This document shows, in pieces, positions 20,307 through 44,938 of a DNA stretch of 64,000 nt. Position numbers and translations under genes: made by a program. Position 1 is the first letter of the stretch. Each line of letters starts with the position of its first letter. The stretch comes from Oscillospiraceae bacterium (GTDB lineage: Bacteria > Bacillota > Clostridia > Oscillospirales > CAG-272). The stretch spans positions 127,462-191,461 of the forward strand of contig SVSP01000002.1 of the NCBI GenBank assembly GCA_015064255.1. Reading direction: 5' to 3'. The notes under the pieces were generated by a model that saw only the letters and a program-made list of their open reading frames with translations, was not told the origin of the DNA and made no database searches.

Positions 20307-20356
20307 GAATATACAAAATTCAACTGTAAAATCACTACAAACGGAGGAGGATAACT

Positions 20357-24991: not shown

Positions 24992-27900
24992 ATGCCGAAG
25001 AGAACAGACATTCACAAGATAATGATAATTGGCTCCGGTCCGATAGTAATCGGTCAGGCTGCCGAATTCGACTATGCAGGTACACAGGCTTGTATCGCGC
25101 TTAAAGAAGAAGGCTACGAGGTAGTTCTTGCAAACTCCAACCCCGCAACGATAATGACAGATACATCTATTGCAGATAAGGTGTATATGGAGCCGCTTAC
25201 TCTTGAGTATGTGTCACGAATCATTAGATACGAGCGACCCGACGCAATTATCCCCGGTATCGGCGGTCAGACAGGTCTTAACCTCGCGATGCAGCTCGAA
25301 AAGAAGGGAATACTCGCAGAATGCGGAGTAGAGCTTCTCGGAACGTCGGGCGAAAGTATCGAAAGAGCAGAAGACAGAGAGCTTTTCAAGGAGCTTTGTA
25401 CATCTATCGGCGAGCCTGTAATTCCCTCGGAAATAACATACTCGGTTGAAGAAGCAAAAAAGGCGGCTGAAAGAATAGGATATCCCGTAGTACTTCGTCC
25501 CGCATTTACACTCGGCGGTACAGGCGGCGGATTTGCAGGTGACGAAAAGGAGCTTGAAGAGGTTGCTATCAACGCTTTCAGACTCTCTCCCGTTCATCAG
25601 GTTCTTATCGAAAAGAGCGTTAAGGGATACAAAGAAATTGAATTTGAAGTTATGCGCGACGGCACCGGACACGCTATCACCATCTGCGGTATGGAAAACG
25701 TTGACCCTGTCGGCGTTCATACGGGCGACTCGGTCGTTGTTGCTCCGATTATGAGCCTTTCAAAGGAAGACGAAAAGATGCTCAACGATAGTGCAATCAA
25801 GCTTATCAAGGAGCTTAAGATAGAAGGCGGATGCAACGTACAGTTTGCACTTCACCCTACAACTTCTCAGTATTATCTTATCGAGGTAAACCCGAGAGTT
25901 TCCCGTTCTTCTGCGCTCGCATCCAAGGCAAGCGGATATCCGATAGCAAGAGTTACGGCAAAGATCGCTGTCGGTATGACTCTTGAAGATATCAAGCTCG
26001 GAAATACTACCGCGGCATACGAGCCCTCTCTTGACTATATAATCGCGAAGCTTCCGAGATTCCCGTTTGATAAATTTGCGGCAGCTACGAACAAGCTCGG
26101 CACACAGATGAAGGCAACAGGTGAGGTTATGGGTATCGGCTCAAACCTTGAAGAATGTCTTCTCAAATCGGTACGTTCACTTGAGATCGGAGTTTGCCAC
26201 TTCCATATGCCTAAGTTCGATAATATGGCTACCGAAGAAATAATTGAGTATATGTCTGATTTCAGAGATGATACTCTCTTTACGGTATGCGAGCTTCTCC
26301 GCCGCGGAGTTACGATCGAAAAGCTTCACGAGATCACGATGATAACTCCCCTTTTCCTCGAAGCTCTTAAGCGTATAACCGACTGCGAAGCAGTACTCAA
26401 GGATAACGTTATGAACGAGGAAGTGCTTAAAGAAGCAAAGAAGCTCGGTTTCTCGGATAAATATATCGCAAAGCTCTGGAACACACGCGAAATTGACGTA
26501 TGGAAGTTCCGTACAGGCAAGAATATTTATCCTATCTACAAAATGGTAGATACAGCGCACACGGGACACTATATTCCTTACTTCTATTCGAGCTATACAG
26601 GCGAAAACAAGTCGATAGTTACGGATAAGGAAAAGAAGCTGGTTCTCGGTGCAGGTCCTATCCGTATCGGTCAGGGCGTGGAATTTGACTACTCATCGGT
26701 TCACGCAGTTCAGACGATACGTAGCGCAGGATACGAGGCTATTATAATAAACAACAACCCCGAAACAGTTTCGACAGACTATACAACTGCCGATAAGCTC
26801 TATTTCGAGCCTCTCACAGTAGAGGACGTTATGAACATCGTCCACTTTGAAAATCCCGACGGAGTTATCGCATCTCTTGGCGGACAGACGGCAATCAATC
26901 TTGCACAGCCCCTACACGATCTCGGAGTCAAGCTCATCGGTACAGACTGCGAGGCAATCGATAAGGCAGAGGACAGAAACGCATTTGAAAATCTTCTCAA
27001 CGACCTTAATATCCCGAGAGCAAAGGGAAAGGCTGTTACAAATATTGAGGACGGAATTAAAGCGGCAGCAGAGATCGGATACCCCGTGCTCGTTCGTCCG
27101 AGCTTCGTTCTTGGCGGACGCGCTATGCAGATCGTAGGTAACGAGGAGCAGCTCCGTCAGTACCTTAAAACCGCCGTTGAGATCGACGAGGACAAGCCCG
27201 TTCTCGTAGATAAGTATATTATCGGTAAAGAGGTCGAGGTCGATGCTATTTGCGACGGTCGCGACGTGTTCGTGCCCGGTATAATGGAGCTTGTTGAGCG
27301 TACAGGTGTACACTCGGGAGACTCTATCAGCGTATATCCCACCTTCAGCATTTCCAACAAAGTAAAGGGAACGATCCTTCAGTACGCAAAGAAGCTCGGT
27401 CTTGGAATCGGCATCAAGGGACTTTACAACATTCAGTTTATCGTCGATAAGGACGAGAACGTATATATCATCGAGGTAAACCCCCGTTCTTCCAGAACGG
27501 TACCCTTCCTCTCTAAAGCAACAGGCTACAGCCTTGCTGACATCGCAACAGAGGTAATTCTCGGTAAGAGCCTCAAGGAACAGGGAATTTTTGATATTTA
27601 CCCCGAGGAAAAGAAGCGTTATTACGTTAAGGTGCCGGTATTCTCCTTCAATAAGATAAGCGGACTTGACGCATATCTCTCCCCTGAGATGAAGTCAACA
27701 GGTGAGGCTATCGGTTACGATGACAAGCTCTCCCGCGCAATGCAAAAGGCACTTATTGCAGGAGGAGTAACCCTTCAAAACTACGGAACTATTATAGTAA
27801 CCCTCGCAGACGAGGACAAGGAGGAGGCGCTCCCCTTGGTTCGCCGCTTCTACGATATGGGATTCAATATTGAAGCAACGATAGGTACTGCGAACTTCTT

Positions 27901-28165
27901 AAAGGAGCACGGAATCCGTACAAGAGTGCGCAAGAAGCTTCTTGAGGGCAGTGAGGAGATATTTGACTCTATTCGTGCAGGATACGTAAGCTACGTTATC
28001 AACACCCGCGCGATCTTGTCGGGCATACATTACAATGACGGTATTGAGATACGCCGCTGCGCGGTTGAGAACGGTGTAACACTTTTCTCGAGTCTTGATA
28101 CTGTGAGAATCGTTCTTGACGTTCTTGACGAAATCACCAACAGAGTATCTACCATAGATTCGTAA
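24992..28165 (+). CDS. carB: Carbamoyl-phosphate synthase large subunit
   Basis: 1057 aa with duplicated ATP-grasp halves (IMIIGSGPIVIGQAAEFDYAGTQA and LVLGAGPIRIGQGVEFDYSSV) and an MGS-like C-terminus. Confidence 0.95.
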   Translation: MPKRTDIHKIMIIGSGPIVIGQAAEFDYAGTQACIALKEEGYEVVLANSNPATIMTDTSIADKVYMEPLTLEYVSRIIRYERPDAIIPGIGGQTGLNLAMQLEKKGILAECGVELLGTSGESIERAEDRELFKELCTSIGEPVIPSEITYSVEEAKKAAERIGYPVVLRPAFTLGGTGGGFAGDEKELEEVAINAFRLSPVHQVLIEKSVKGYKEIEFEVMRDGTGHAITICGMENVDPVGVHTGDSVVVAPIMSLSKEDEKMLNDSAIKLIKELKIEGGCNVQFALHPTTSQYYLIEVNPRVSRSSALASKASGYPIARVTAKIAVGMTLEDIKLGNTTAAYEPSLDYIIAKLPRFPFDKFAAATNKLGTQMKATGEVMGIGSNLEECLLKSVRSLEIGVCHFHMPKFDNMATEEIIEYMSDFRDDTLFTVCELLRRGVTIEKLHEITMITPLFLEALKRITDCEAVLKDNVMNEEVLKEAKKLGFSDKYIAKLWNTREIDVWKFRTGKNIYPIYKMVDTAHTGHYIPYFYSSYTGENKSIVTDKEKKLVLGAGPIRIGQGVEFDYSSVHAVQTIRSAGYEAIIINNNPETVSTDYTTADKLYFEPLTVEDVMNIVHFENPDGVIASLGGQTAINLAQPLHDLGVKLIGTDCEAIDKAEDRNAFENLLNDLNIPRAKGKAVTNIEDGIKAAAEIGYPVLVRPSFVLGGRAMQIVGNEEQLRQYLKTAVEIDEDKPVLVDKYIIGKEVEVDAICDGRDVFVPGIMELVERTGVHSGDSISVYPTFSISNKVKGTILQYAKKLGLGIGIKGLYNIQFIVDKDENVYIIEVNPRSSRTVPFLSKATGYSLADIATEVILGKSLKEQGIFDIYPEEKKRYYVKVPVFSFNKISGLDAYLSPEMKSTGEAIGYDDKLSRAMQKALIAGGVTLQNYGTIIVTLADEDKEEALPLVRRFYDMGFNIEATIGTANFLKEHGIRTRVRKKLLEGSEEIFDSIRAGYVSYVINTRAILSGIHYNDGIEIRRCAVENGVTLFSSLDTVRIVLDVLDEITNRVSTIDS

Positions 28166-28590
28166 CCAAGGGCGTTGCCCTTGGAACCCGCTTAGAAACT
28201 TTTTGAAAAAAGTTTCTAAGAACTTCAAAAACTTTGCTGAAAAAGAGCAAGATTCGGAGGAGGCAGTTTTTGCGTCAGCAAAACTGCCAAGCGATGACGA
28301 AGTCATCGGTTTTCCCTTATGGAAACCCTGCCAAAACCCTTTTTGAAAAAAGGTTTTGGATTCCCAAAAACTTTACTGAAAAGAAAAAATAATAGTCGAA
28401 GCGACACGAAGTGTCGGTTTGGGCGCGTAATTTGCGGTTTTTGCTTACTCATAGTTTATCAGGGGTACGGACCGTCGAGGACGCCGGTCCCTACAATGGA
28501 TTTAATATTATAAACTAAAACAAATTCCTTCCCCCTTTAAGAAAAGTTTTTGGGAAGGTGCGGAAACCCTTTTTTCAAAAAGGGTTTCTG
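28166..28590. repeat. Array of modular hairpin element units and accessory hairpins
   Basis: Forward unit 28166-28245; hairpins 28262-28288 and 28292-28308; forward unit 28331-28383; hairpin 28402-28416; hp4 28469-28495; reverse unit 28527-28590. Fills the carB-pyrK spacer. Confidence 0.85.
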
Positions 28591-28610
28591 AGTAAAAGAA
28601 AGGCAGAGAA

Positions 28611-32671: not shown

Positions 32672-33595
32672 ATGAGAAGTCTTATTGATATAAAAGATTT
32701 GTCACTTGCCGAGATCGACGAGCTTATCGCGACTGCAGAGGACATAATGGCAAATCCCGAAAAATATGCGGAGGCGTGCAAGGGTAAAAGACTTGCAACA
32801 CTCTTCTTTGAGCCGTCCACGAGAACAAGACTGAGCTTTGAGTCTGCGATGTATCAGCTCGGCGGAAGCGTTCTCGGCTTTTCGGAAGCGCAGAGCAGCT
32901 CAACGGCAAAGGGTGAAAGCCTTTCCGATACCATAAGAACTGTTTCAAATTACGTTAATATAATCGCGATGCGTCATCCCAAGGAGGGTGCGGCTCTTGC
33001 GGCTACGATGCGTTCTGAGGTGCCGATCATAAACGCGGGTGACGGCGGTCATAACCACCCGACACAGACTCTTACCGACCTTATTACGATAAAGCTTGAA
33101 AAGGGCGGCTTCGACGGACTTACCGTCGGTCTTTGCGGCGACCTTAAATTCGGACGTACCGTTCATTCGCTTATTTCGGCGATGTCAAGATACAAGAATG
33201 TAAAATTCGTGCTTATTTCTCCCGAAGAGCTTAAAGTTCCCGACTATATCAGAGATGAAGTTATCATTCCGTCGGGCGCACAGTTTGAGGAAACGACCGA
33301 CCTCGTCGGTTCTATCGACAAGCTTGACATACTCTATATGACGAGAGTTCAGAAGGAGCGTTTCTTTAACGAGGCGGACTATATAAGACTTAAAGATATA
33401 TACATTCTTAATCCCGATAAGCTCGCGAATGCTAAGAAGGATCTTGCTATTCTTCATCCGCTTCCGAGAGTTAACGAAATTTCGGTCGCAGTTGATGATG
33501 ACTCCCGTGCCTGCTATTTCAAGCAGGTAAAATACAGCGTATATATCCGTATGGCTCTTATTCTTATGCTGCTAAAGGAGGCTGAAAGCAAATGA
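32672..33595 (+). CDS. pyrB: Aspartate carbamoyltransferase catalytic subunit
   Basis: ORF 32630..33595; the ATG at 32672 has GGGAG upstream. Motifs STRTR, HPTQ and HPLP. Confidence 0.9.
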
Positions 33596-34020
33596 TTATA
33601 GGACAGATCAAAAACGGAATAGTTATTGACCATATAAGCGCGGGAAAGGGAATGTATATCTACAACGTTCTCGGTCTTGATAAGCTTGATTGCACGGTTG
33701 CTATGATAAAAAATGCGGACAGTACAAAAATGGGCAAGAAGGATATAATCAAGATAGGTGAAGTGATCGATCTTGATTTTGATCTGCTCGGATTTATCGA
33801 TCCCGGTATTACCGTCAATATGATCGAGAACGGCAGACTTGCAAAGAGGGAAAGACTCACTCTTCCCGAAAGAGTTTCCGGTATTATAAGATGCAAGAAT
33901 CCTCGATGTATTACGTCGGTTGAACCCGAGCTGAAACAGGAATTCAGACTCAGTGACAGCGAAAAAAGAATCTATCGCTGCATCTACTGCGAGCACGCGG
34001 CACAGATAGAAAATATCTGA
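33592..34020 (+). CDS. pyrI: Aspartate carbamoyltransferase regulatory subunit
   Basis: 142 aa with zinc cysteines CKNPRC...YRCIYC. ATGA overlap with pyrB. Confidence 0.85.
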
Positions 34021-34084
34021 ATTTGATTTGCTGTTTTATAACAGTTGACCATATAAATATTAAAATTTTTGTGCAATATCTCTA

Positions 34085-34113
34085 TTGACTTTAGCACTTT
34101 AAAGTGGTAAAAT
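34085..34113 (+). promoter_or_regulatory. Promoter of the his operon
   Basis: TTGACT at 34085-34090, 17-nt spacer, TAAAAT at 34108-34113. Leader of about 35 nt to the hisZ ATG. Confidence 0.55.
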
Positions 34114-34150
34114 CATATCTATCGATCCTACCAGAAAGGCAGAAACAAAT

Positions 34151-35278
34151 ATGAACGGCGGTTTTGCTGCAGATAAGAATATATTTAAAACAGAAGAAAG
34201 AGTGACCTTTGCTCTGCGCGGACTTTACCGTGCATTCGGCTATAAGCCGTATAAAATGAGCAAATTCGAGGAATACGACCTTTACGTGCGCAATAAGGAC
34301 TTCCTTATAAGTGACAGAGTTATCACGTTCACAGGGGAAAGCGGCAAGCTTCTTGCGCTTAAACCCGACGTAACTCTTTCGATAATAAAAAATACTCCCG
34401 AATCTTCCTCGGGTATAAACAAAATATACTATAACGAAACCGTTTACCGTTCATCGGGCGCAAGCGGCTCGAAGGAGTTTTCCGAAATAATGCAGACAGG
34501 TCTTGAATGCTTCGGAAAGCTTGACAGCTACAACGTTTGCGAGGTGATTATGCTTGCCATTCGCAGTCTTGCGACCGTAAGCGACAAATACATACTTGAT
34601 ATTTCTCATATGGGAATACTTTCCGCGCTTCTTGATGAGGCAGGTCTTTCGGGCGAGCTCAGACAGAAGATGCTTCTTTGCATAAGCGAAAAGAACCGTT
34701 CGGGCGTAGCTATCGTATGCGACGAAGCAGGACTCAACGGTGAAATGAGCGAATGCTTTGCAAAGCTCGTTTCGGCATACGGCAAGATAGACGAAGTTGT
34801 TTCGCTCCTCGGAGAGATATGCCGCACACCCAAGGCGCGTGAGGCTCTTGACGAGCTTGTTCTCGTTTGCGAAATGACGAAGAAATGCGGAGTATCCGAA
34901 CACGTTTGGATAGATTTCTCGGTAGTGAACGATATGCGCTATTACAGCGGTATAGTTTTCAGAGGATTTATCGACAATATTCCGACGGGCGTTCTTTCGG
35001 GCGGAAGATATGACAATCTTCTTTCGAAAATGGGACGCGAGGGCGGAGCTATCGGCTTTGCGGTATATCTTGATCTGCTTGAGCGTCTTGACAGAAGCTC
35101 GGCAGACTGCGATGCGGATATTTTCCTTATTTACGGCGAAAATAACTCTCCCGCAGACGTGTTTGCTATGACCGAAAAGCTTACTGCAAACGGCGAAAGT
35201 CTTATGTCGGGCAGAGAAGTTCCCGAAAATATGACGTTTAAGAAGATCGTTGATATGAGAAATGGCGGTGAGGTCTGA
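34151..35278 (+). CDS. hisZ: ATP phosphoribosyltransferase regulatory subunit
   Basis: 375 aa HisRS-like paralog located directly upstream of a short-form hisG. Confidence 0.85.
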   Translation: MNGGFAADKNIFKTEERVTFALRGLYRAFGYKPYKMSKFEEYDLYVRNKDFLISDRVITFTGESGKLLALKPDVTLSIIKNTPESSSGINKIYYNETVYRSSGASGSKEFSEIMQTGLECFGKLDSYNVCEVIMLAIRSLATVSDKYILDISHMGILSALLDEAGLSGELRQKMLLCISEKNRSGVAIVCDEAGLNGEMSECFAKLVSAYGKIDEVVSLLGEICRTPKAREALDELVLVCEMTKKCGVSEHVWIDFSVVNDMRYYSGIVFRGFIDNIPTGVLSGGRYDNLLSKMGREGGAIGFAVYLDLLERLDRSSADCDADIFLIYGENNSPADVFAMTEKLTANGESLMSGREVPENMTFKKIVDMRNGGEV

Positions 35279-35280
35279 TT

Positions 35281-35910
35281 ATGGCTGATTTTGTAAATAT
35301 TGCGCTTCCCAAAGGAAGACTTGGAGAAAAGGTCTATTCTATGTTCGAAGCGGCAGGTTATCCTTGTCCTTCGATCAAAGAAAACAACAGAAAGCTCATA
35401 TACGAAAATCCCGAGGTCGGAGTCAGATATTTTTGGGTAAAGCCGTCCGACGTATCGATATACGTTGAAAGAGGTGCGGCTGATATCGGAGTTGCGGGCA
35501 AGGATATTCTTCTTGAATATACGCCCGACGTTTACGAGCTTCTCGATCTCAAAACAGGCGTGTGCCGTATGATGGTTGCCGCTATGCAGGACTACCGAAG
35601 CGATCCCGATAAAACGCTCCGCGTGGCAACGAAATTCCCGAATATTGCGCGCAGTTACTACGACAGACAGCGCAGAGAGATAGATATTATCACTCTTAAC
35701 GGCTCAATAGAGCTTGCTCCCATTCTCGGACTTTCGGACGTTATCGTTGATATAGTGGAAACGGGAAAAACACTTTATGAAAACAATCTTGCACCGTTTG
35801 AAAAGATAGTTGATATAAGTGCTCGCCTTATTGCAAACAAGGCAAGCTTTAAATTCAAAAATGCGGCGATAGAAGAGATATATTCTTCGCTTGCAAAAAT
35901 CGTAGAGTGA
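35281..35910 (+). CDS. hisG: ATP phosphoribosyltransferase (short form)
   Basis: 209 aa; ALPKGRL N-terminus and DIVETGKTL motif. Confidence 0.9.
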   Translation: MADFVNIALPKGRLGEKVYSMFEAAGYPCPSIKENNRKLIYENPEVGVRYFWVKPSDVSIYVERGAADIGVAGKDILLEYTPDVYELLDLKTGVCRMMVAAMQDYRSDPDKTLRVATKFPNIARSYYDRQRREIDIITLNGSIELAPILGLSDVIVDIVETGKTLYENNLAPFEKIVDISARLIANKASFKFKNAAIEEIYSSLAKIVE

Positions 35911-35922
35911 GAGGGAATATAA

Positions 35923-37197
35923 ATGATAAAAATATTTGAAGATATAAAAAATATAGATAAAACTCTCCTTTTTAACCGTTCGCTTTCGGCATCGGGTGTT
36001 GAGGATATCGTAAGTGATATAATTTCAAACGTGCGCAGCCGCGGCGACGAGGCACTTTTTGAATACACAGAGCGTTTCGACAGAGCAAAGCTGACATCTC
36101 TTGAGGTATCAAAGGAAGAAATCGAAAAGGCTGTCAGCGAGATCGGCGAAGAATTTATGGGAGTTTTGCGCCGTGCGGCTGAAAATATTGAAGCATTCCA
36201 CAAAAGACAGGTAAGAAACAGCTTTATTATAAACGAGAAAAACGGCGTGGTTACCGGACAAAAGGTGATTCCTCTTGCCAAGGTCGGAATTTACGTTCCG
36301 GGTGGCACGGCGGCTTATCCGTCCTCCGTGCTTATGAATGCAATTCCCGCGAAGCTCGCAGGAGTAGGCGAGATCATTATGGTTTCACCCGCAAGCGGAG
36401 GAAAGATTGCTCCCGCTATTCTTGCGGCGGCATACGTGGCAGGAGTTGACCGCGTGTTCGCTCTCGGCGGAGCGCAGGCTGTTGCAGCACTCGCATACGG
36501 AACAAAGAGTGTTCCTATGGTTGACAAGATAGTCGGACCGGGTAACGCGTTTGTTGCAGAGGCGAAGCGTCAGGTTTACGGTCAGGTTGCGATAGATATG
36601 ATCGCAGGGCCGAGCGAAATTCTCGTAATTGCAGATAAAAATTCAAATCCCTCTTACGTTGCCGCCGATATGCTTTCGCAGGCAGAGCACGACAAAAATT
36701 CGACCGCGGTTCTTATTACCGACAGCATTGAGCTTGCTGAAAAGGTTTCGGACGAGCTTGAACGTATGATCCCTCTTCTTCCGAGAGCCGAGATCGCCCG
36801 CGCTTCTGTCGATAACAACGGAAAGATCATCGTTACCGACGATCTCCTCGAAGCGATTGAGCTTTCAAACGATATCGCTCCCGAGCATCTTGAGCTTTGT
36901 CTTGACGATCCTTTTGCTGTTCTTGACCGTGTGAAGAATGCAGGATCGGTATTTATGGGAAGATATTGTCCCGAAGCTCTCGGCGACTACTTCGCAGGAC
37001 CCAATCACACACTTCCCACCAGCGGAACTGCAAGATTCTCAAGCCCTCTTTCTGTTGACGACTTCGTTAAGAAAATGCAGTACACCTACTTCACCAAGGA
37101 AGCGCTCGGCGAGGTTGCAGACGACGTTATGGCTTTTGCCGAAAAAGAAGGTCTCTCCGCACACGCACGCAGCGTAGGAGTACGCAAAGGGACTTAG
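35923..37197 (+). CDS. hisD: Histidinol dehydrogenase
   Basis: 424 aa; QAEHD motif and GDYFAGPNHTLPT. The stop TAG lies inside repeat hairpin 37193-37211. Confidence 0.95.
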   Translation: MIKIFEDIKNIDKTLLFNRSLSASGVEDIVSDIISNVRSRGDEALFEYTERFDRAKLTSLEVSKEEIEKAVSEIGEEFMGVLRRAAENIEAFHKRQVRNSFIINEKNGVVTGQKVIPLAKVGIYVPGGTAAYPSSVLMNAIPAKLAGVGEIIMVSPASGGKIAPAILAAAYVAGVDRVFALGGAQAVAALAYGTKSVPMVDKIVGPGNAFVAEAKRQVYGQVAIDMIAGPSEILVIADKNSNPSYVAADMLSQAEHDKNSTAVLITDSIELAEKVSDELERMIPLLPRAEIARASVDNNGKIIVTDDLLEAIELSNDIAPEHLELCLDDPFAVLDRVKNAGSVFMGRYCPEALGDYFAGPNHTLPTSGTARFSSPLSVDDFVKKMQYTYFTKEALGEVADDVMAFAEKEGLSAHARSVGVRKGT

Positions 37198-37336
37198 GGT
37201 TCTGCCCTAAGAACCCGCCAAAACCCTTTTTGTAAAGAAGGTTAAAACGATTTGCGCGCAAATCGTTTAAGAATTCCCAAAAACTTTACTAAAAGGGGGA
37301 ATTATAATTGTAGGGACAGGCGTCCTCGACTGTCCG
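37193..37336 (+). repeat. Modular hairpin element copy (hp1 + interrupted hp2 + box + hp4)
   Basis: hp1 cttagggttctgccctaag at 37193-37211. hp2 is interrupted by the perfect 24-nt palindrome aaacgatttgcgcgcaaatcgttt at 37245-37268. Box at 37275-37295; hp4 tgtagggacaggcgtcctcgactgtcc at 37309-37335. Confidence 0.85.
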
Positions 37337-37360
37337 CTTGAAGAAATACAGGTTAATATT

Positions 37361-38440
37361 ATGAGTAAATATATGAACAAAAAATACGCCGAGCTTACGG
37401 CGTACACACCCGGCGAACAACCGCTTGGTGTCAAATACATAAAGCTTAATACAAACGAGTCCCCCTTTCCGCCCTCTCCCGACGTGCTCGTGTCGATAGG
37501 CTACGGCGAGCTTTCCGATCTTCGTCTTTACTCCGACCCCGATTGCCGCGGACTTCGCAAGGCGCTCGGAGAGTTCTACGGACGCGAAACCGACGAGATT
37601 TTCGTTTCAAACGGCTCGGACGACATTCTGAACTTCGCATTTATGGCGTTTTCCGAAAGGGGCGTTGTCTTTCCCGATATAACCTACGGTTTTTACGAGG
37701 TCTATGCGAAGCTGCACGGTGTAAATTACGAAAAAAAGCCTCTTTGCGATGATTTCACCATAAAAACCGAAGATTATCTTAACGAAAACGGCAAACTTAT
37801 AGTTATCGCAAATCCAAATGCACCGACCGGAATTTTTAAACCGCTTGGCGAAATCGAGCGTATACTTAAGGCAAATCCCGACAGCGTTGTGCTTGTCGAT
37901 GAAGCGTACATTGATTTCGGCGGCGAAAGCGCCCTGAAACTGCTTGACAGCTACAAAAATCTGCTTGTCGTACGTACTTATTCCAAGTCAAGAAGCCTTG
38001 CGGGAGCGCGTCTTGGATTCGCTTTCGCGGATAAAGAAATTATTGCCGATCTTAATAAGCTGAAATTCTCGACCAATCCGTACAGCATCAACCGACTTAC
38101 ATTAATTGCGGGCGAAGCGGCTCTTCGGAACGGAAAATATTATGAGGACAACGCGAAAAAGATCATCGAAACACGAGAATACGTTACAGAAAAACTACGC
38201 GAAATGGGCTTTGAGGTTATAGAGTCTGCGGCAAATTTCGTTCTTGCAGGACACGACGCGATTTCCGGCTCGCTTTTTGCTGAAGAAATGAAAAAACGCG
38301 GTATTCTGATAAGACATTTCTCGGGCGTACGTCTTGAAAAATATAACCGCATAACGATAGGAACTCGCGCCGAAATGGACGCTTTCCTCTTCGCCGCTGA
38401 GAAGATTATAGCCAAGGGCGCTGCCCTTGGAACCCGCTAA
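37361..38440 (+). CDS. hisC: Histidinol-phosphate aminotransferase
   Basis: 359 aa class-II aminotransferase with the PLP lysine region RTYSKSRSLAG. The last 9 codons are encoded by repeat hp1 and linker. Confidence 0.9.
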   Translation: MSKYMNKKYAELTAYTPGEQPLGVKYIKLNTNESPFPPSPDVLVSIGYGELSDLRLYSDPDCRGLRKALGEFYGRETDEIFVSNGSDDILNFAFMAFSERGVVFPDITYGFYEVYAKLHGVNYEKKPLCDDFTIKTEDYLNENGKLIVIANPNAPTGIFKPLGEIERILKANPDSVVLVDEAYIDFGGESALKLLDSYKNLLVVRTYSKSRSLAGARLGFAFADKEIIADLNKLKFSTNPYSINRLTLIAGEAALRNGKYYEDNAKKIIETREYVTEKLREMGFEVIESAANFVLAGHDAISGSLFAEEMKKRGILIRHFSGVRLEKYNRITIGTRAEMDAFLFAAEKIIAKGAALGTR

Positions 38441-38567
38441 AGAACTTTTTGAAAAAAGTTCTTTGGAATCTCAAAAACTTTGCTGAAAAAATTAGTAAGA
38501 ATCCAACCCCTTTTAAGAAAAGTTTTTGAAAGGGCTTGTGGAAACTTTTTTCAAAAAGTTTCCACAA
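38412..38567. repeat. Composite modular hairpin element (forward + reverse units, inverted-repeat structure)
   Basis: hp1 at 38412-38430; hp2 at 38439-38464; box at 38469-38490; box-rc at 38507-38534; hp2 ttgtggaaacttttttcaaaaagtttccacaa at 38536-38567. Confidence 0.9.
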
Positions 38568-38586
38568 AGAGAAAGGAAATAAAATA

Positions 38587-39174
38587 ATGAGAAACAGTGA
38601 AATTTTGCGCAAAACCGCAGAAACAGATATTGAACTGAAGCTTGACCTTGACGGCAAGGGCGAGAGCGATATTGATACGTCCTGTCCGTTTCTTGACCAT
38701 ATGCTGACACTCTTTGCAAAGCACTCAAGATGTATGCTCTACGTAAGATGCAAGGGCGATACAGAGGTTGATTATCATCACACGGTCGAGGATATCGGAA
38801 TTTGCCTCGGCGACGCGATAAAGGAATCACTCGGTAATAAAATGGGAATCGCACGTTACGGAAATGCGATAATTCCGATGGACGAGGCACTTCTTCTCGT
38901 GTCTATCGATCTTTCGGGCAGAGCAACGCTTGCATTTTCGACCGAAGGACTCACCGAAAAGGTGGGAGATTTCGATACAGAGCTTGTTAAGGAATTTTTC
39001 GCGGCGCTTGTCAGAAAATCGGAAATGACACTCCATATAAGACAGCTTGCAGGTGAAAATACACACCATATCATCGAAGGCATTTTCAAGGCATTCGCGG
39101 CGGCTCTCCGCGCGGCAGTAGCACTTGACTCGGCAAGAGCAGGTGAGATTCCTTCTACAAAGGGCGTGCTCTGA
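38587..39174 (+). CDS. hisB: Imidazoleglycerol-phosphate dehydratase
   Basis: ORF 38536..39174 starts inside the repeat, so the ATG at 38587 (MRNSEILRKTAETDIEL) is used. Motifs HHTVED and HHIIEG. Confidence 0.9.
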   Translation: MRNSEILRKTAETDIELKLDLDGKGESDIDTSCPFLDHMLTLFAKHSRCMLYVRCKGDTEVDYHHTVEDIGICLGDAIKESLGNKMGIARYGNAIIPMDEALLLVSIDLSGRATLAFSTEGLTEKVGDFDTELVKEFFAALVRKSEMTLHIRQLAGENTHHIIEGIFKAFAAALRAAVALDSARAGEIPSTKGVL

Positions 39175-39791
39175 TGATAGCGATAATTGACTACGGAGTG
39201 GGAAATCTTTTCTCGCTCGGCTCGTCGCTTGCCGCACTCGGCATAGATTCGGTAGTTACGGATGACGAAGCAGTAATAAGAAACGCGGATAAAATAATTT
39301 TGCCCGGAGTCGGCGCGTTCAGAGATGCGTCCGAAAAGCTCGCCGAGCGCGGATTTGATAAGCTTCTCAAAGAGCTCGCGGCGCGGGGCAAGCCGATTAT
39401 GGGAATTTGCCTCGGTATGCAGCTTCTTTTCGATGAAAGCTATGAGTTCGGCAGATATAAAGGTCTCGGACTTATAAAAGGCAGCGTTAAGCCGATAGCG
39501 GACATTATTCCCGCAGACCTTAAAATCCCTCATATCGGTTGGAACGGACTGATTTTCCCCGAAAATAAGGATAAAAACGAGATATTTAAATACATTAACG
39601 AGGGCGACTGCGTTTATTTCGTTCACTCATACTACGCAACCGATTGCGATGATGCGGTAATTGCAAACACCTCGTACGGTGCGCCCCTTACAGCCGCAGT
39701 TGCTTCGGGAAATGTTTACGGCTGTCAGTTCCACCCCGAAAAAAGCGGAAACGTGGGACTTTCGATAATAAAGGCATTTGCCGAGCTTTAA
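39174..39791 (+). CDS. hisH: Imidazole glycerol phosphate synthase, glutamine amidotransferase subunit
   Basis: 205 aa with the catalytic GICLGMQ motif and C-terminal QFHPEKS. Confidence 0.9.
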   Translation: MIAIIDYGVGNLFSLGSSLAALGIDSVVTDDEAVIRNADKIILPGVGAFRDASEKLAERGFDKLLKELAARGKPIMGICLGMQLLFDESYEFGRYKGLGLIKGSVKPIADIIPADLKIPHIGWNGLIFPENKDKNEIFKYINEGDCVYFVHSYYATDCDDAVIANTSYGAPLTAAVASGNVYGCQFHPEKSGNVGLSIIKAFAEL

Positions 39792-39812
39792 TTACATTAA
39801 AAGGACAAAACT

Positions 39813-40526
39813 ATGATAATTTTTCCTGCAATAGATCTTTACGAGGGCAAGGCGGTGCGTCTTTACAAGGGCGACTATGCACAGCTCACGGTTTATGATG
39901 AAAATCCGATAAATACGGCAAAAAAATTTGTAGCAGAAGGCGCGACACATATCCATATGGTTGACCTTGAGGGCGCGCGTGACGGCAACACCCCGAATTT
40001 CGAAACAGTAAAACAGATAGTTACTTCGACCGATCTTTTTGTTGAGATCGGAGGCGGAATACGCGATATGGAAACTATCGACAAATATCTTTCTATCGGT
40101 GTTGGACGTGTTATTCTCGGTACGGCGGCTGTTTCAAGCGAGGGATTTGTAGAGCGTGCCGTAGCTAAATATGGCGACAAAATAGCAGTCGGGGCAGATA
40201 TAAAGGACGGCGAGATAGCCGTTAAAGGCTGGGTAGAAAAAAGCGGTGTCAAGAGCGACGATTTCTTTGAAAAAATGCAGAAGATCGGCGTAAAAACTGT
40301 TATTTGCACCGATATCTCGCGCGACGGAGCTATGCGCGGTACAAATCTTGAGCTTTACAAGTCGCTTTCTGAAAAATATGATATGAACATAATTGCTTCG
40401 GGCGGTGTTTCTTCGATGGACGACGTTATCGCACTTCGCAAAATGAACGTTTACGGCGCGATAATCGGCAAGGCTTATTACACCGGCGCTATCAAGCTCT
40501 CGGATGCGCTTAGGGCTCTGCCCTAA
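39813..40526 (+). CDS. hisA: ProFAR isomerase
   Basis: 237 aa; MIIFPAIDL N-terminus and (beta/alpha)8 HisA pattern. The last codons and the stop lie in repeat hairpin 40509-40527. Confidence 0.9.
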   Translation: MIIFPAIDLYEGKAVRLYKGDYAQLTVYDENPINTAKKFVAEGATHIHMVDLEGARDGNTPNFETVKQIVTSTDLFVEIGGGIRDMETIDKYLSIGVGRVILGTAAVSSEGFVERAVAKYGDKIAVGADIKDGEIAVKGWVEKSGVKSDDFFEKMQKIGVKTVICTDISRDGAMRGTNLELYKSLSEKYDMNIIASGGVSSMDDVIALRKMNVYGAIIGKAYYTGAIKLSDALRALP

Positions 40527-40732
40527 GAACCCGCCAAGGGCGCTGCCCTTGGAACTCGCCAAAGAACTTTTTGTAAAAAGTTCTTTGGAATCTCAAAAAC
40601 TTTACTGAAGGAAATATTATTATTTCTTTTTAAGAAAAGTTTTTGAATGGGTTTGGGAAAACTTTTTTCAAAAAGTTTTCCCAAGAGAACGTTTTAGAAA
40701 GGCATGGAAAACCTTTTATTAAAAGGTTTTCC
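40509..40732. repeat. Composite modular hairpin element (two hp1, forward unit, reverse unit, extra hp2)
   Basis: hp1a at 40509-40527; hp1b at 40534-40552; hp2 at 40559-40588; box at 40591-40610; box-rc at 40627-40650; hp2 at 40653-40684; hp2-like ggaaaaccttttattaaaaggttttcc at 40706-40732. Confidence 0.9.
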
Positions 40733-40740
40733 GATTAATT

Positions 40741-41499
40741 ATGATAACAAAAAGAATAATACCGTGTCTTGACGTAAGGGACGGGCGAGTAGTAAAGGGA
40801 GTAAACTTTCTCGGACTTTCGGACGTATCATCTCCGGTCGAGCTTGCGCAGTTTTATAGCGAAAACGGAGCAGACGAGCTTGTTTTTTATGATATAACGG
40901 CATCGGCGGAAGGACGTGCGCTTTTTACGGACATTCTCTGCGAAACGGCACGAAAGGTATTCATACCGCTGACGGTAGGCGGGGGGATAAACACACTTGC
41001 AGACTTTGACCGCGTGCTCAAATGCGGTGCGGATAAGGTCAGCGTCAATTCGGGCGCAATAAGAAACCCGATGCTGATAAAAGAAGGCGCAGAAAAATAC
41101 GGAAGCCAGTGCGTAGTGCTTTCGGTTGATATAAAAAGAGTCGACGGAGTTTTCTGCGTTTTTGCCAAAGGCGGCAGAGAAAACACAGGAATCGAGGCTA
41201 TTTCGTGGATAAAGCGCGGAGTTGAGCTCGGTGCGGGCGAAATCGTTGTAAACTCGATTGACACGGACGGAGTCAAAGGCGGATTCGATATCGAAATGCT
41301 CGACGCTGTTTGCGAGGCGGTAAACGTTCCCGTTATTGCATCGGGCGGTGCGGGTTCGCGTGAGGACTTTGCGACTCTGTTCGAAACGCTTCCCAAGATC
41401 GATGCAGGACTTGCCGCATCTGTTTTCCATTTCGGACAGATAAAAATTCCCGAGCTGAAAAAATATCTCGCGGATAAAGGCATAAGTATGCGACTTTAA
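40741..41499 (+). CDS. hisF: Imidazole glycerol phosphate synthase cyclase subunit
   Basis: 252 aa; KRIIPCLDV N-terminus, typical HisF. Confidence 0.95.
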   Translation: MITKRIIPCLDVRDGRVVKGVNFLGLSDVSSPVELAQFYSENGADELVFYDITASAEGRALFTDILCETARKVFIPLTVGGGINTLADFDRVLKCGADKVSVNSGAIRNPMLIKEGAEKYGSQCVVLSVDIKRVDGVFCVFAKGGRENTGIEAISWIKRGVELGAGEIVVNSIDTDGVKGGFDIEMLDAVCEAVNVPVIASGGAGSREDFATLFETLPKIDAGLAASVFHFGQIKIPELKKYLADKGISMRL

Positions 41500-41527
41500 A
41501 ACTTAAGATAAGAAAGGTGAAAATAAA

Positions 41528-42193
41528 ATGCTTGATATAAATAAACTTAAATTTGATGAAAAGGGACTCATTCCCGCGATAGTTATCGATGCCGAAACAA
41601 AAAAACTGCTCACCCTTGCATATATGTCAAAGGAAAGCCTTCAGATATCTATGGAAAAGGGACTCACCTGCTTTTACAGCCGTTCACGTCAGGAGCTTTG
41701 GCTTAAAGGTGAAACATCGGGAAATTATCAGCATATTGTGAGCATTACAGCAGACTGCGACGGAGATGCACTTGAGGTGCTCGTTCTTAAGGACGGACCC
41801 GCTTGTCATACGGGAAGCGAATCCTGCTTCAACGATAAGGTTTACGAAAACGAAGAAAATCTTGCAGAGCTTGAGAGCAAATTCTCGTATACCGGTCTTA
41901 TGAAGCTTATCGAGGGCAGAAAGATAGAGAAAAAAGAAGGCTCTTATACAACCTATCTCTTTGAAAAGGGAATTGATAAGATACTCAAAAAGGTCGGCGA
42001 GGAGTGTACAGAGGTAATTATCGCAGGCAAGGCAAACGATAAAAAGGAAACAATATACGAAATTTCCGACCTTGTTTATCACGTTATGGTAATGATGATA
42101 GAAATGGGAATTTCTCTTGACGATATTCACGACGAGCTTGCTTCGCGTCACGTTATAGACAAAAAAGTCAAGCAGGAAAAAATGACAAAGTAA
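41528..42193 (+). CDS. hisIE: Bifunctional phosphoribosyl-AMP cyclohydrolase / phosphoribosyl-ATP pyrophosphatase
   Basis: 221 aa; HisI region ([16 protein letters not shown]...CDGDAL) fused to a HisE region (EECTEVIIA). Confidence 0.9.
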
Positions 42194-42217
42194 GGTATAT
42201 CTTAAGGAAAAACGTGT

Positions 42218-43003
42218 ATGAGAAACGAAATAAAAAAGCTGCTTGACGATTTTTCATCAAGCGGCAAACAGAAATTTGACCTTCATATGCACACGACCTT
42301 TTGCGACGGTAAAAATACGCCCGAGGAAATGGTGCTTTCTGCGATAGAAAAAGGACTCACCACGGTCGGAATTTCAGGTCACGCACTTACCTGTTTTGAT
42401 AAAAGCTACTGTATGAGCGATGAAAGACTTTCGGAATATTTTGCGGAGGTTGAAAGGGTCAAAGAAAAGTATTCTGATAAGATAAAGGTCCTTTGCGGAC
42501 TTGAGGTCGATTATTATTCCAAAGTACCCGAAGAATATCTCAAAAGAGCAGACTATATAATAGGCTCGGTACACTACATCTGCAAAGACGGAGAATATGC
42601 GGTTGTGGACAGCAGCGCGAAAAAGATAAGAGATGCCGCAGAGCGTCTTTGGGGCGGTGACGTTTACGCTATGATAGAAGACTATTATAAAACGGTTGCG
42701 GACGTTGTGAACAAGCTTGATCCCGACGTAATAGGTCATATTGACCTCATCACGAAATTTATTGAGGTCGATGATTATTTTGATACTTTGAACCCGAGAT
42801 ATATCGAAGCCTCTCGCAACGCCGTAAAAGCTCTCATTCCGTACGCAGTTCCTTTTGAAATAAATTACGGAGCTATCTCGCGCGGATACCGAACTCTGCC
42901 GTATCCCGAAAAATCGCTTCTTGATTTTATAATCGAAAACGGCGGAAGAACTGTAAAATCGAGCGACGCGCATTCGAAAGAGAATATCTTGACAGCTGAA
43001 TAA
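42218..43003 (+). CDS. hisK: Histidinol-phosphatase, PHP family
   Basis: 261 aa; DLHMHT N-terminus and SDAHS C-terminus. Last gene of the his operon. Confidence 0.8.
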   Translation: MRNEIKKLLDDFSSSGKQKFDLHMHTTFCDGKNTPEEMVLSAIEKGLTTVGISGHALTCFDKSYCMSDERLSEYFAEVERVKEKYSDKIKVLCGLEVDYYSKVPEEYLKRADYIIGSVHYICKDGEYAVVDSSAKKIRDAAERLWGGDVYAMIEDYYKTVADVVNKLDPDVIGHIDLITKFIEVDDYFDTLNPRYIEASRNAVKALIPYAVPFEINYGAISRGYRTLPYPEKSLLDFIIENGGRTVKSSDAHSKENILTAE

Positions 43004-43058
43004 ACACGCGAGAGCGCGAGGCTTACGGCAAGTAGAACGATAGTTTGGAGATGATTTA

Positions 43059-43403
43059 TTGAACCCGGCAATATATATACCGATAATTGTGCTGTGGATT
43101 ATAATATTTACGACGCACAATCATAAGCGAAAAGTTGCAACTATAAGAAAAATTATCGGAAAAAGGAAAACGGAAGGAAATGCCGAAATGAAAGAACTTG
43201 CAGAAAAATTTATTGAGAAAGAATGTGTAGCATCCTCTTTTGACGGAAACCAATACGTAGGCATCATCAAGGAAGTTACAGACAGAGCGATTCTGTTTGA
43301 AAAGGACGGAAAGCTTGAAGTAATAAATCTTGACTTTATCATCCGCATCAGAGAATATCCGCGAAATAAAAAGGGAAAGAAAAAATCCGTACTGTTTGAC
43401 TAA
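43059..43403 (+). CDS. Hypothetical small membrane-anchored protein
   Basis: 114 aa with a non-ATG start in the ORF track, an N-terminal TM helix and a Lys-rich tail. Confidence 0.3.
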   Translation: MNPAIYIPIIVLWIIIFTTHNHKRKVATIRKIIGKRKTEGNAEMKELAEKFIEKECVASSFDGNQYVGIIKEVTDRAILFEKDGKLEVINLDFIIRIREYPRNKKGKKKSVLFD

Positions 43404-43431
43404 TAAAATCAAGATTACAACCACAACAAAA

Positions 43432-43475
43432 CACCCCGACAGATTTCAAAATCTGTCGGGGTGAATTTTTGTTTT
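43432..43475 (+). terminator. Intrinsic terminator ending the his region
   Basis: caccccgacagat-ttcaaa-atctgtcggggtg followed by aatttttgtttt. Confidence 0.8.
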
Positions 43476-43576
43476 ATGTGAAGTAATTATGTGTGCGGGT
43501 CACCGAGAACGCAGACACCAACGTTTTTATGAGAAAAAGCTTTTCTTCTTGCGCGTTTTGTTATATATTAAATGAT

Positions 43577-44299
43577 TCATAGTAATGTATACTCTTTTTT
43601 TACAATCACAGGATATATAAGTGCGGCTAACATACTGCCTATAATAGGTCCTGCGAAGAATACCCACACAGTTTTGATGTACTCACCACCTGCAAATATT
43701 GCCGGACCAAGACTGCGAGCGGGATTGACAGAGGTGCCTGTCAATGCAATTCCTAAAATGTGTACAAGTGTCAAAGACAAGCCAAGTAAGATATGTGACG
43801 CAAATCCGAGAGATGGATTTGCTGTTATTTTAAGTACTGCCATAACAAAGACAAAAGTCAGTAAAACTTCTACTATGATTGCAACCCAAGGATTGTTTGA
43901 AAGATTAGATATACTGTTTGCACCCAAAGCAGATGTTCCTTCAAGATAATCACCTGAAAGATCAGCGACTCCTCCGGCTTCAACTATGAGGAATAGAATT
44001 GCACCTCCCAAAATACCACCGAGATACTGTGAAACTGTGTATCCGATGAAAGTGGTAAATTTTATTCTTCCGTCAATCAGCATTGCAAGTGATATTACAG
44101 GATTTATGTGACATCCCGAAATGTCAATTAAAATATACGAGAGAACGGTAAGTGTCAAACCGAATGCCAAAGCAGTAATAAGATATCCGCTTCCGATTGA
44201 ACTGTTATATCCGACAGAAATTGCTGTTCCGCAACCGAAAACTACGAAAAAAGCAGTTCCTAAAAACTCACAGATGTATTTTACAATGTTTTTTTGCAT
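43577..44299 (-). CDS. MIP/aquaporin family channel
   Basis: 240 aa with six TM helices and two half-helix motifs, HINPVISL (NPV variant) and SVNPARSLGP. AT-rich codon usage. Confidence 0.85.
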   Translation of the reverse strand: MQKNIVKYICEFLGTAFFVVFGCGTAISVGYNSSIGSGYLITALAFGLTLTVLSYILIDISGCHINPVISLAMLIDGRIKFTTFIGYTVSQYLGGILGGAILFLIVEAGGVADLSGDYLEGTSALGANSISNLSNNPWVAIIVEVLLTFVFVMAVLKITANPSLGFASHILLGLSLTLVHILGIALTGTSVNPARSLGPAIFAGGEYIKTVWVFFAGPIIGSMLAALIYPVIVKKEYTLL

Positions 44300-44443
44300 A
44301 AAAATGTCCTTTCAAATTAAATTTCTATTTTAAGTAATAAATTTAACAACTATAAATATAATTATAACATACTTCTAAATGATATTCAAGACAATTTAGG
44401 ATTTTTATATAAAATATTGTAAAAGTTTAAATCGGAGTAAAAT

Positions 44444-44938
44444 ATGCGAAAAATTATAATACTGTTTTTGATCTGTACACTTCTTTTTTTATCGTGCGAG
44501 AAAGAAACAAAATATATACCGCTTCCCGGTGAATACACGTTAAAATGCCAAATATCCGATGTTGAATACGACGTGAAGATCACACTTGACGAGGCTCTTT
44601 CGGGAAAGCTTACCTTTTCGTCTGCGAGTGAAATGTGTGACTGGGAATTTTACTACTCATCGGAGGATAAGAGCATAAAATATTTTACCTCGCTCGGAGA
44701 GGTGAGCGAGGCGAAATTGGCGAAAAACGAAAACGTAAAATATCTTTTCAAATTTGTTCTCTGTGATTTTGACAATATCTCCGACGTTTCGCATAATAAG
44801 ATAAGCGGTATAGACGTGAGCGTCCTCAAAACGACAGATGGGGTTACGGTATATACAGACTCGGCAAGCGGAAGACCCCTACGCATTGAAACAGAGCGAA
44901 TGACAGCCGATATTATTTCGCACCCTCAAGGTCAGTAG
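44444..44938 (+). CDS. Hypothetical lipoprotein
   Basis: Signal peptide with lipobox LFLSC. The 3' end overlaps the convergent MFS gene by 26 nt. Confidence 0.45.
   Translation: MRKIIILFLICTLLFLSCEKETKYIPLPGEYTLKCQISDVEYDVKITLDEALSGKLTFSSASEMCDWEFYYSSEDKSIKYFTSLGEVSEAKLAKNENVKYLFKFVLCDFDNISDVSHNKISGIDVSVLKTTDGVTVYTDSASGRPLRIETERMTADIISHPQGQ

Follow-up and report, generated by a model that had tools for sequence, protein, structure and literature searches.

Repetitive extragenic palindromic (REP) sequences and bacterial interspersed mosaic elements (BIMEs) are short, imperfect extragenic palindromes of 20-40 nt that form inverted pairs in mosaics, often at the 3' ends of cistrons in operons, and are co-transcribed without being terminators. 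The malE-malF and hisJ-hisQ junctions are examples (Enterobacteria, Pseudomonas). REP sequences reportedly stabilize the upstream mRNA, a finding attributed to Higgins in 1982 and Newbury in 1987. In the REPIN-RAYT type, the palindrome has a GTAG or CGTC head, and the gene for the cognate REP-associated tyrosine transposase (RAYT, a Y1/HUH transposase) is usually flanked by REPs. In the present study, we analyzed a 64-kb stretch of DNA (the window) from a metagenome-assembled genome of an uncultured Ruminococcaceae-like member of the Clostridia from the ruminant gut, in which copies of a palindromic repeat element (the his element) occupy three junctions of the histidine operon. We consider it probable that these copies are lineage-specific, modular, non-coding palindromic repeats that are primarily tolerated and self-maintaining, and that any effect on expression is secondary. 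The element is apparently an unnamed relative of the REP-type and MITE-type repeats of other bacteria (MITE, miniature inverted-repeat transposable element); judging from its sequence, the architecture of the family is REP/BIME-like and its inverted halves are MITE-like.

The initial annotation of this DNA had compared the element with the REP elements of malEFG, which is apt as an analogy only. Similar to REP/BIME, the his element consists of short repeated palindromes, is extragenic, and forms inverted pairs with other motifs at the 3' ends of cistrons. However, its hairpins (hp1-hp4) have no GTAG or CGTC head and, therefore, it is not a classical GTAG-REP; only a separate unit at 37310-37335 (GTAGGGAC...) has GTAG. 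Furthermore, its conserved parts are the loop and flanking arm, the stems varying strongly from copy to copy, and no RAYT gene was seen in the window or among the open reading frames (ORFs) of the identical contig L001 (L numbers denote the loci compared).

BOX, RUP, and SPRITE of Streptococcus pneumoniae and the Correia elements of Neisseria are 100-250 nt long, non-coding, intergenic, co-transcribed, and strongly folded. The his element is also non-coding, with two inverted halves and a variable number of sub-units, as in boxA-boxB(n)-boxC. However, no sequence relationship to these repeats was seen, and the element cannot be filed as a MITE because neither a target-site duplication nor a parent insertion sequence was identified. 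Its copies are also far more diverged from one another than those of a recent MITE burst. Rickettsia palindromic elements are palindromic repeats that insert in frame within genes and add residues. Similarly, hp1 encodes residues (AKGAALGTR in HisC; LRALP in HisA and in HisD of L221), but it replaces only the extreme 3' ends of genes, and the bulk of the his element is intergenic.

In operons of cellulolytic Clostridia, stable stem-loops lie at the 3' ends of upstream cistrons, and their folding energy sets transcript ratios (PMC4423207; PMC9045158). A stem-loop without a U-rich tail did not stop transcription in Ruminiclostridium cellulolyticum, and poor tails resulted in partial termination (PMC9045158). 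The stem-loops of the his element resemble these structures in their stability and in their position at cistron 3' ends within an operon. However, the stem-loops of the cellulolytic Clostridia are locus-specific, whereas the his element is a dispersed repeat family; their function was demonstrated by end-mapping and reporters, whereas the his element is known from sequence alone; and the U-rich tails needed by the Clostridial terminators are missing from it.

Structure of the his element and its family

The full histidine operon, hisZ-G-D-C-B-H-A-F-IE with a HisJ-type phosphatase gene, lies on the + strand at 34151-43003. Its genes were assigned using NCBIfam:

34151-35278, + strand: hisZ
35281-35910, + strand: hisG
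35923-37197, + strand: hisD
37361-38440, + strand: hisC
38587-39174, + strand: hisB
39174-39791, + strand: hisH
39813-40526, + strand: hisA
40741-41499, + strand: hisF
41528-42193, + strand: hisIE
42218-43003, + strand: hisJ-type phosphatase gene

Recomputed spacings agreed with the tight packing initially described for most of the operon (Z/G, 2 nt; G/D, 12 nt; B/H, 1-nt overlap; H/A, 21 nt; F/IE, 28 nt; IE/J, 24 nt). The long junctions are D/C (163 nt), C/B (146 nt), and A/F (214 nt). The range of 160-215 nt previously given for them fits D/C and A/F, but is slightly high for C/B.

A full copy of the his element comprises hp1 (one or two GC hairpins), hp2, a left arm, an AT-rich center, the inverted arm, hp3, and an optional hp4. 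The GC hairpin of hp1 (e.g., CCAAGGGCGCTGCCCTTGG or CTTAGGGCTCTGCCCTAAG) is followed by AACCCGCC; this 25-nt unit can be tandem (two at A-F) and is found in the window on the left side only. The hairpins hp2, hp3, and hp4 are perfect palindromes around CTTTTTGAAAAAAG, with the form xxxxCTTTTTGAAAAAAGxxxx in hp2 and xxxxCTTTTTTCAAAAAGxxxx in hp3. The left arm is CAAAAACTTTnCTGAAAA, and the right arm (TTTTAAGAAAAGTTTTTG) is its reverse complement. The segments "hp2 + arm" and "arm + hp3" are inverted copies of one unit: the covariance model R1 matches them on opposite strands with 60-79 bits (38436-38489 / 38511-38567 at C-B; 40558-40611 / 40628-40684 at A-F). The modules at the three junctions are as follows, with the evidence in parentheses:

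D-C junction
37193-37219, + strand: hp1 CTTAGGGTTCTGCCCTAAG with tail AACCCGCC; the hisD stop codon TAG (37195-37197) is in the 5' arm (direct-repeat family D8; hp1 covariation)
37220-37243, + strand: degenerate hp2 AAAACCCTTTTTGTAAAGAAGGTT (family D2; 75% to the reference)
37245-37268, + strand: extra perfect 12+12 palindrome AAACGATTTGCG/CGCAAATCGTTT, outside the family consensus (inverted repeat I3; 100% complementary)
37278-37295, + strand: left arm CAAAAACTTTACTAAAAG (arm motif match)
37310-37335, + strand: GTAG-headed REP-like hairpin GTAGGGACAGGCGTCCTCGACTGTCC, in place of the right half (repeat comparison)
C-B junction
38412-38437, + strand: hp1 CCAAGGGCGCTGCCCTTGG with tail AACCCGC, within the hisC reading frame; stop codon TAA at 38438-38440 (direct repeats; hp1 covariation)
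38439-38464, + strand: hp2, perfect palindrome AAAGAACTTTTTGAAAAAAGTTCTTT (R1 match 38436-38489, 70.7 bits)
38472-38489, + strand: left arm CAAAAACTTTGCTGAAAA, pairing with 38511-38529, 89% complementary (inverted repeat I3)
38511-38528, + strand: right arm TTTTAAGAAAAGTTTTTG, reverse complement of the left-arm motif (arm motif; inverted repeat)
38538-38565, + strand: hp3, palindrome GTGGAAACTTTTTTCAAAAAGTTTCCAC, followed by the hisB Shine-Dalgarno sequence AGAAAGG and ATG at 38587 (R1 match 38511-38567, minus strand, 76.3 bits)
A-F junction
40509-40533, + strand: first hp1 CTTAGGGCTCTGCCCTAAG with AACCCG; stop codon TAA at 40524-40526 (family D8; 97% to the copy at 37193)
40534-40560, + strand: second, tandem hp1 CCAAGGGCGCTGCCCTTGG with AACTCGCC (direct repeats; hp1 covariation)
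40561-40586, + strand: hp2 AAAGAACTTTTTGTAAAAAGTTCTTT (family D1; R1 match, 67.6 bits)
40594-40645, + strand: left arm CAAAAACTTTACTGAAGG and right arm TTTTAAGAAAAGTTTTTG on either side of a central AT hairpin at 40608-40629 (all predicted to fold as one long stem)
40655-40682, + strand: hp3 GGGAAAACTTTTTTCAAAAAGTTTTCCC (R1 match 40628-40684, minus strand, 75.9 bits)
40696-40743, + strand: hp4 module, consisting of AGAAAGG (Shine-Dalgarno-like), CAT, hairpin GGAAAACCTTTTATTAAAAGGTTTTCC at 40706-40732, GATTAATT, and the hisF ATG (terminator scan; fold; relatives)

The long junctions had been described as filled entirely by element copies. The same modules are present in all three, and the C-B and A-F copies are complete; the internal arms at C-B are 89% complementary over 19 nt, and the 87-nt A-F left unit (40533-40619) is 91% identical to C-B 38411-38497. 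However, the D-C copy is partial, comprising hp1, a degenerate hp2, the unrelated 24-nt palindrome, and a left arm, with the GTAG-headed hairpin and no right half; its R1 match is weak (37241-37295, 41.8 bits). The element is also not purely intergenic because hp1 extends into hisD, hisC, and hisA at their 3' ends. Within the his operon of the window, hp4 is found at A-F only (40706-40732), just before the hisF start.

The his operon accounts for three of the seven element loci in the window, which has approximately 20 hairpin units in all and direct-repeat families D1-D13. With 1 mismatch allowed, the window has 16 matches to the arm motif CAAAAACTTTNCT, where 0.93 would be expected; 0/100 shuffles reached this count. 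The same modules are present outside the operon at 16-191, 3703-3779, 20232-20309, and 28166-28591. R1 matches are restricted to 16-191, 3727-3779, 20256-20309, and 28190-28591 and the three his junctions, and units are absent from 41-64 kb. In the pyrimidine operon, too, an element separates carB (24992-28165) from the pyr gene that follows (28611). This 445-nt gap (28166-28610) is composite, with hp1, hp2, two left arms, several small hairpins, a GTAG unit (28465-28494, minus strand), a right arm, and hp3. All hp1 copies in the window (8/8) are on the + strand, the GC skew of which is positive throughout (0.005-0.096); this strand bias is inseparable from gene orientation.

The hp1 and hp2/hp3 hairpins are real: their stems vary between copies yet remain complementary. 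In hp2/hp3, 92.5% of cells were paired versus 77.0% in shuffles, with 69 versus 25 double-change cells (0/500 shuffles reached either value) and compensatory changes at 8/13 pairs. The corresponding values for hp1 were 94.7% versus 79.8% and 26 versus 8. Because the stems co-vary by base pair rather than by codon, a coding explanation for the conserved core was rejected. As RNA, the D-C, C-B, and A-F junctions fold with minimum free energies of -49, -63, and -98 kcal/mol, respectively (z -3.0, -7.6, and -9.7 against shuffles). However, stem pairs are Watson-Crick in 940/994 cases (94.6%), and the excess of sense-strand G-T mismatches (17) over A-C mismatches (9) is not convincing, the copies being non-independent. 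The pairing has no RNA-specific signature, and a DNA palindrome gives the same pattern. Nothing in these sequences appears to single out a constraint at the RNA level or at the DNA level.

The last codons and/or the stop codon of hisD, hisC, and hisA are supplied by hp1, which starts 0-12 nt from the stop codons of the upstream cistrons or overlaps them. The hp1-encoded HisC tail is non-homologous; the TIGR01141 match ends at residue 348/359, and the tails are unlike in each species (AKGAALGTR, KGAAL, KK, LG, and others). The LRALP tail of HisA is encoded by hp1, and an identical tail ends HisD in the relative L221. Moreover, a 53-aa ORF (40523-40684, minus strand) lies wholly inside the A-F element and is publicly annotated as a gene (L001, 11350-11511). 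As a protein-database query it matched itself only, and since it has no relatives there, it is almost certainly spurious. The elements create false gene calls, such as this ORF in the A-F gap, alter the C-termini of HisC, HisA, and HisD, and leave 91%-identical direct repeats 2.1 kb apart within an essential pathway.

Occurrence and turnover in relatives

Relatives were collected using a HisB-based scan with one genome per species (80 loci), and five intermediates were added by targeted look-ups. The element is present at D-C, C-B, and A-F in L005, L006, L007, L221, L222, and L223 (HisB 86-92% identical). L225 (HisB 79%) has the element at A-F only. Its short D-C (1226-1261) and C-B (2325-2376) spacers have hp1-/arm-like fragments (GCCCTAAAAC...GAAGAAGTTTTCTG) that look like decayed remnants, which suggests that the copies are dispensable. 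L224 (HisB 76%) has another repeat family with a similar arm (CCGCAAAACTTTTCTGACGAAAAAG) at pyrI-hisZ, H-A, A-F, and F-IE (1160-1790, 7185-7510, 8200-8410, and 9140-9425). This repeat (GGGAACGGTCGC...AAAAGCTCCGCAAAACTTTTCTGACGAAAAAG) shares the arm motif, not the hairpins.

Relatives lacking the insertions, proposed as comparators in the initial annotation, were found: approximately 70 relatives at ~65% HisB identity keep the gene order with compact junctions (D-C ~14 nt, C-B ~0, A-F 4-nt overlap). Since near relatives are filled and these distant relatives are compact, punctuation of the operon is a derived trait at about the genus level. We take this distribution to show that the elements entered the his operon in the ancestor of a genus-level clade and were inherited at the same junctions; after this colonization, they would have persisted there. 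The certain consequence is structural. The last codons of hisD, hisC, and hisA were replaced, and the tight spacing or overlap at D-C, C-B, and A-F was lost, which abolishes the translational coupling of the relatives.

R1 matches were found in 3/77 distant loci (L021, L025, and L030), each in an expanded hisD-hisC junction; L021 has two further matches near the contig end, and L025 also has GTAG units. Sporadic expansion of his spacers is common in the order, and D-C is the most frequent site (10/73). Other hairpin arrays or inserts occur at H-A, F-IE, D-C, and B-H in L010 (11196-11322), L009, L012, L013, L015, L039, L062, L065, and L070.

Identity at 4-fold sites is 0.57-0.64 within the group of the window, L005, and L006, and 0.44-0.54 between subclades, near saturation, while loops and arms are invariant at orthologous sites. 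L005, L221, and L222, the 4-fold sites of which are only 0.44-0.51 identical, share an unchanged 52-nt right half at A-F, with 1 change in L223. The hp4 allele of the window is that of L006 (29/29 identical), with 1 change in L007. The distribution of both alleles contradicts the species tree. Furthermore, the C-B and A-F left units of one genome are closer to each other than to their orthologues, with 91% identity in the window; the two left units of L005 match each other exactly, but belong to a subtype other than that of the window. Subtype CTTAGAAAC recurs at unrelated loci (window 28191, L006 D-C, and L006 ~20190). An in-place compensatory change was found at D-C (GAGAAAAC/GTTTTCTC in L005 versus GAGACAAC/GTTGTCTC in L007). 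We read these patterns as showing continual remodeling of the copies, which gain and lose modules and undergo exchange or gene conversion among themselves. On this evidence, the behavior is that of a repeat population with unit replacement and gene conversion, plus some pairing constraint.

Several points weigh against repeats that are primarily tolerated. The window has no recognizable transposase gene, and no RAYT gene was found there or in L001. No target-site duplication was visible (visual inspection revealed no direct repeats around the three his copies, the borders of which are uncertain), and no empty-versus-filled pair with clean borders was recovered among the relatives. Hence, the case for mobility comes from the structure of the family only. 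The stems also differ between copies much more than in typical REP or MITE populations. Moreover, the same junctions are occupied, with perfectly conserved loops and arms, across lineages near synonymous saturation. Such long occupancy could equally mean purifying selection for a host function.

Wider occurrence of the units

A wider scan with the pattern CTTTTTGWAAAAAG N(10-20) CAAAAACTTT matched 16 viral contigs and at least 120 metagenome contigs, with 37-66% G+C. The matches listed share features that the pattern does not impose: the bases flanking the core are perfectly complementary in nearly all and differ from match to match, many have a GC hairpin just 5' of the unit, and many have a mirrored half downstream, some with matching outer ends (L103, L208, and L127 on both sides). 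Among these listed matches, the spacers with units were co-directional (45), convergent (16), or divergent (12), and only 15/54 hp1-bearing units were 3' of a co-oriented ORF. Gene-strand polarity was considered as a property of the superfamily and rejected, with 22 versus 23 among the matches listed. No transposase-like neighbor gene (REPtron-like) was shared at the 120 metagenome loci listed, and one subfamily only was syntenic. This subfamily (TGCAACCTGCAAGCAGGTTTTGCG...GGCGGCTTTTTGTAAAAAGCC...CGCAAAAACTTTA) is present in L095, L102, L107, L118, L147, L170, L195, and L205 (37-41% G+C; one is a 96-kb viral contig) and sits in a conserved gene neighborhood rather than being dispersed.

Rfam 15 at the gathering score gave only RNase P and one tRNA in the window and nothing in 13 metagenome loci; on the his junctions, E values up to 10 gave only chance-level microRNA and plastid hairpins. 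A BLAST search of the full C-B copy against plasmid and phage collections gave no match. A full-text literature search with the core motifs yielded nothing beyond primers and unrelated sequences, and literature searches for repeat families in Ruminococcaceae/Oscillospiraceae returned nothing relevant and no description of the element. That a unit so widespread in metagenomes is unmatched in Rfam and was not described in the literature searched suggests an uncatalogued repeat class that is common among uncultured Clostridia.

GTAG-headed palindromes of the classical REP type (GTAGGGACnGGCGTCCTCGACnGTCC) are also present in the window at 37310-37335 (+ strand) and 28465-28494 (minus strand). This unit is dense in some related metagenome-assembled genomes: L025 has eight copies, and the unit also occurs in L021, L009, and L161; L019, L064, L045, and L159 have GTAGGGGCG...CGCCC variants. 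These GTAG-headed and CGCCC units suggest REP/RAYT-type systems in these Clostridia. A survey of GTAG/CGTC REPs makes no mention of Clostridia or Firmicutes (PMC3733652).

Transcription of the operon

Two signals bound the operon:

34085-34113, + strand: best promoter-like site 5' of hisZ (TTGACT, 17 nt, TAAAAT, with TG; consensus match only), probably the operon promoter
43432-43463, no strand assigned: bidirectional canonical terminator with a 14-bp stem and T-runs on both strands, after the last co-oriented ORF (terminator scan)

This terminator was the sole convincing one found, and shows the form of a real terminator in this genome. The scan of 33500-44500 gave 13 terminator-like sites against a shuffle expectation of 12.6; none of hp1, hp2, or hp3 was listed, and hp4 was only a weak call with a poor tail (ATTAATTATG). 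The view that the stems lack a following T-run was, thus, borne out. A promoter scan found no convincing -35/-10 pairs, and no strong internal promoters, in the three junctions, and an outward promoter borne by the element was rejected on this basis. The initial expectation of read-through also held. With a single strong promoter-like site before hisZ and a single strong terminator after the operon, co-transcription with read-through is the likeliest state. Since no T-run follows hp1-hp3, and a stem-loop of R. cellulolyticum without a U-rich tail did not terminate, read-through across the three junctions is likely, with a small leak possible.

Because they carry no terminator, the elements would form part of the polycistronic his mRNA, in which they would fold as highly stable stem-loops. 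These hairpins may act as barriers to 3'-to-5' exonucleases or as targets of double-strand RNases, which would give unequal half-lives to the mRNA segments ZGD, C, BHA, and F-IE-J. Such a side-effect on half-lives is likely but unproven. No stoichiometric logic is obvious in this division, which separates HisH from HisF, two partners in one enzyme. The window also encodes RNase J (20868-22634, minus strand), with RNase P RNA near its gene (15826-16217). RNase J would bear on any processing of hairpin-bounded mRNA segments.

Alternative explanations

The likeliest alternative is that the junctions are adaptive intercistronic RNA elements, namely, selected processing sites or 3'-end protectors that set the half-lives of hisZGD, hisC, hisBHA, and hisF-IE-J, in the manner of REP in malEFG; unequal stability or processing of mRNA segments was the proposal of the initial annotation. 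We regard this as possible, although the odds are against it. Very stable folds right at the stop codons of the upstream cistrons and the lack of terminators in the junctions are consistent with such elements, and selective RNA processing and stabilization in Clostridia provides a precedent (PMC4423207). The same junctions are filled in at least seven species with 4-fold sites only 0.44-0.64 identical, loops, arms, and some whole modules are 100% conserved, and orthologous hairpins show compensatory changes (L005 versus L007 at D-C). However, this conservation is explicable by conversion from a conserved multi-copy subfamily, similar units of which are present at window 28535-28591 and at C-B of L006. 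Module content at one junction also differs freely between species, and L225 seems to have let two of three copies decay. Moreover, the pairing, with its near-complete Watson-Crick stems and no clear preference for G-T over A-C, points to no RNA-specific signature, and the segments do not match known protein complexes, with HisH apart from HisF.

It is unlikely that the elements are DNA-level sites, with the palindromic cores (TTTTTGAAAAA and AAAAACTTTT) and perfect stems recognized as cruciforms or single-strand hairpins by a recombinase/transposase or by a nucleoid or topology factor, and with any RNA effect incidental. The near-perfect Watson-Crick palindromes without a wobble preference are consistent with such sites. 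Conserved loops and arms beside variable stems are the pattern expected of a hairpin-recognizing protein, the unit occurs in every intergenic type without strand preference across many of the metagenome contigs listed, and 8/8 hp1 copies of the window are on the G-rich strand. However, the last point is confounded by gene orientation, perfection from arm to arm may also be maintained by repair within the palindrome with no binding protein needed, and the ORFs of the window and L001 yielded no candidate protein.

A broader proposal, which we also doubt, is that the his-junction element is a branch of a very widespread, so far undescribed superfamily with a variable paired stem, an invariant CTTTTTGAAAAAAG core, and then CAAAAACTTTT. 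The core and arm would be recognized by a dedicated protein, either a domesticated recombinase or an RNA-binding/RNase factor, and the host would use the units as intercistronic punctuation, with 3'-end protection upstream and a hairpin-dependent translation start downstream. If true, Clostridia would have a new REP-like system that takes part in regulation. Two further candidates were rejected. The T5-G-A5 core matches a CodY box or IHF site poorly, and contigs that differ widely in G+C also contain the units. An analogy with integron attC sites (variable stem, conserved ends, position after ORFs) fails because core operon genes, rather than cassettes, flank the units.

We consider it quite unlikely that the elements are translation modules, in which an hp4-type hairpin between the Shine-Dalgarno sequence and AUG would fold to bring both together for the downstream gene, hisF in the present case. 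The layout "SD, 3 nt, hairpin 21-29 nt, 8-11 nt, ATG" (SD, Shine-Dalgarno sequence) recurs before hisF (window, L006, and L007), hisC (L006 and L221-L223), and hisB (L007 and L221-L223), and its stems differ between genomes but remain complementary. Moreover, hisF of the window has no other Shine-Dalgarno sequence within 12 nt of its ATG, and its hp4 hairpin is shared intact with L006. However, AAAGG in the 3' arm or the A-rich spacer could serve initiation, and GAAAGG is the usual Shine-Dalgarno sequence of this genome. In addition, hp4 is missing at A-F in L005, L221, L222, and L223 and at D-C in L005, and such a role accounts for one module only, not the whole element. The element as a donor of the downstream Shine-Dalgarno sequence AGAAAGG was rejected because GAAAGG precedes many genes that do not adjoin an element.

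Leaky internal terminators or attenuators, with hairpins that stop a fraction of RNA polymerases and step his expression down in the manner of the poor-U-tract internal terminators of ABC-importer operons in cellulolytic Clostridia, are very unlikely: although few-U stem-loops of R. cellulolyticum still terminated 20-50% of transcripts (PMC9045158), the A/U-rich lower stem of hp2 (AAAGAAC...GUUCUUU) resembles the paired U-rich tracts of that study, and hp4 was weakly called by the terminator scan, the AACCCGC after the GC stem of hp1 contains no U, no U-run comes after hp2 or hp3, in which the stems are A/U-rich beside the loop, a stem-loop without a U-rich tail did not terminate (PMC9045158), and strong termination would starve the pathway because all three junctions precede hisF, hisIE, and the phosphatase gene, which have no promoter of their own.

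Implications

We return to the favored explanation, in which the three junctions hold modular palindromic repeats that the operon primarily tolerates. The clade provides a natural series in one operon, comprising no element, an element at one junction, elements at three junctions, and another family at four junctions. This series could show whether operon repeats are tolerated or put to use. Operon-internal repeats offer a cheap, evolvable means to uncouple and tune neighboring genes.

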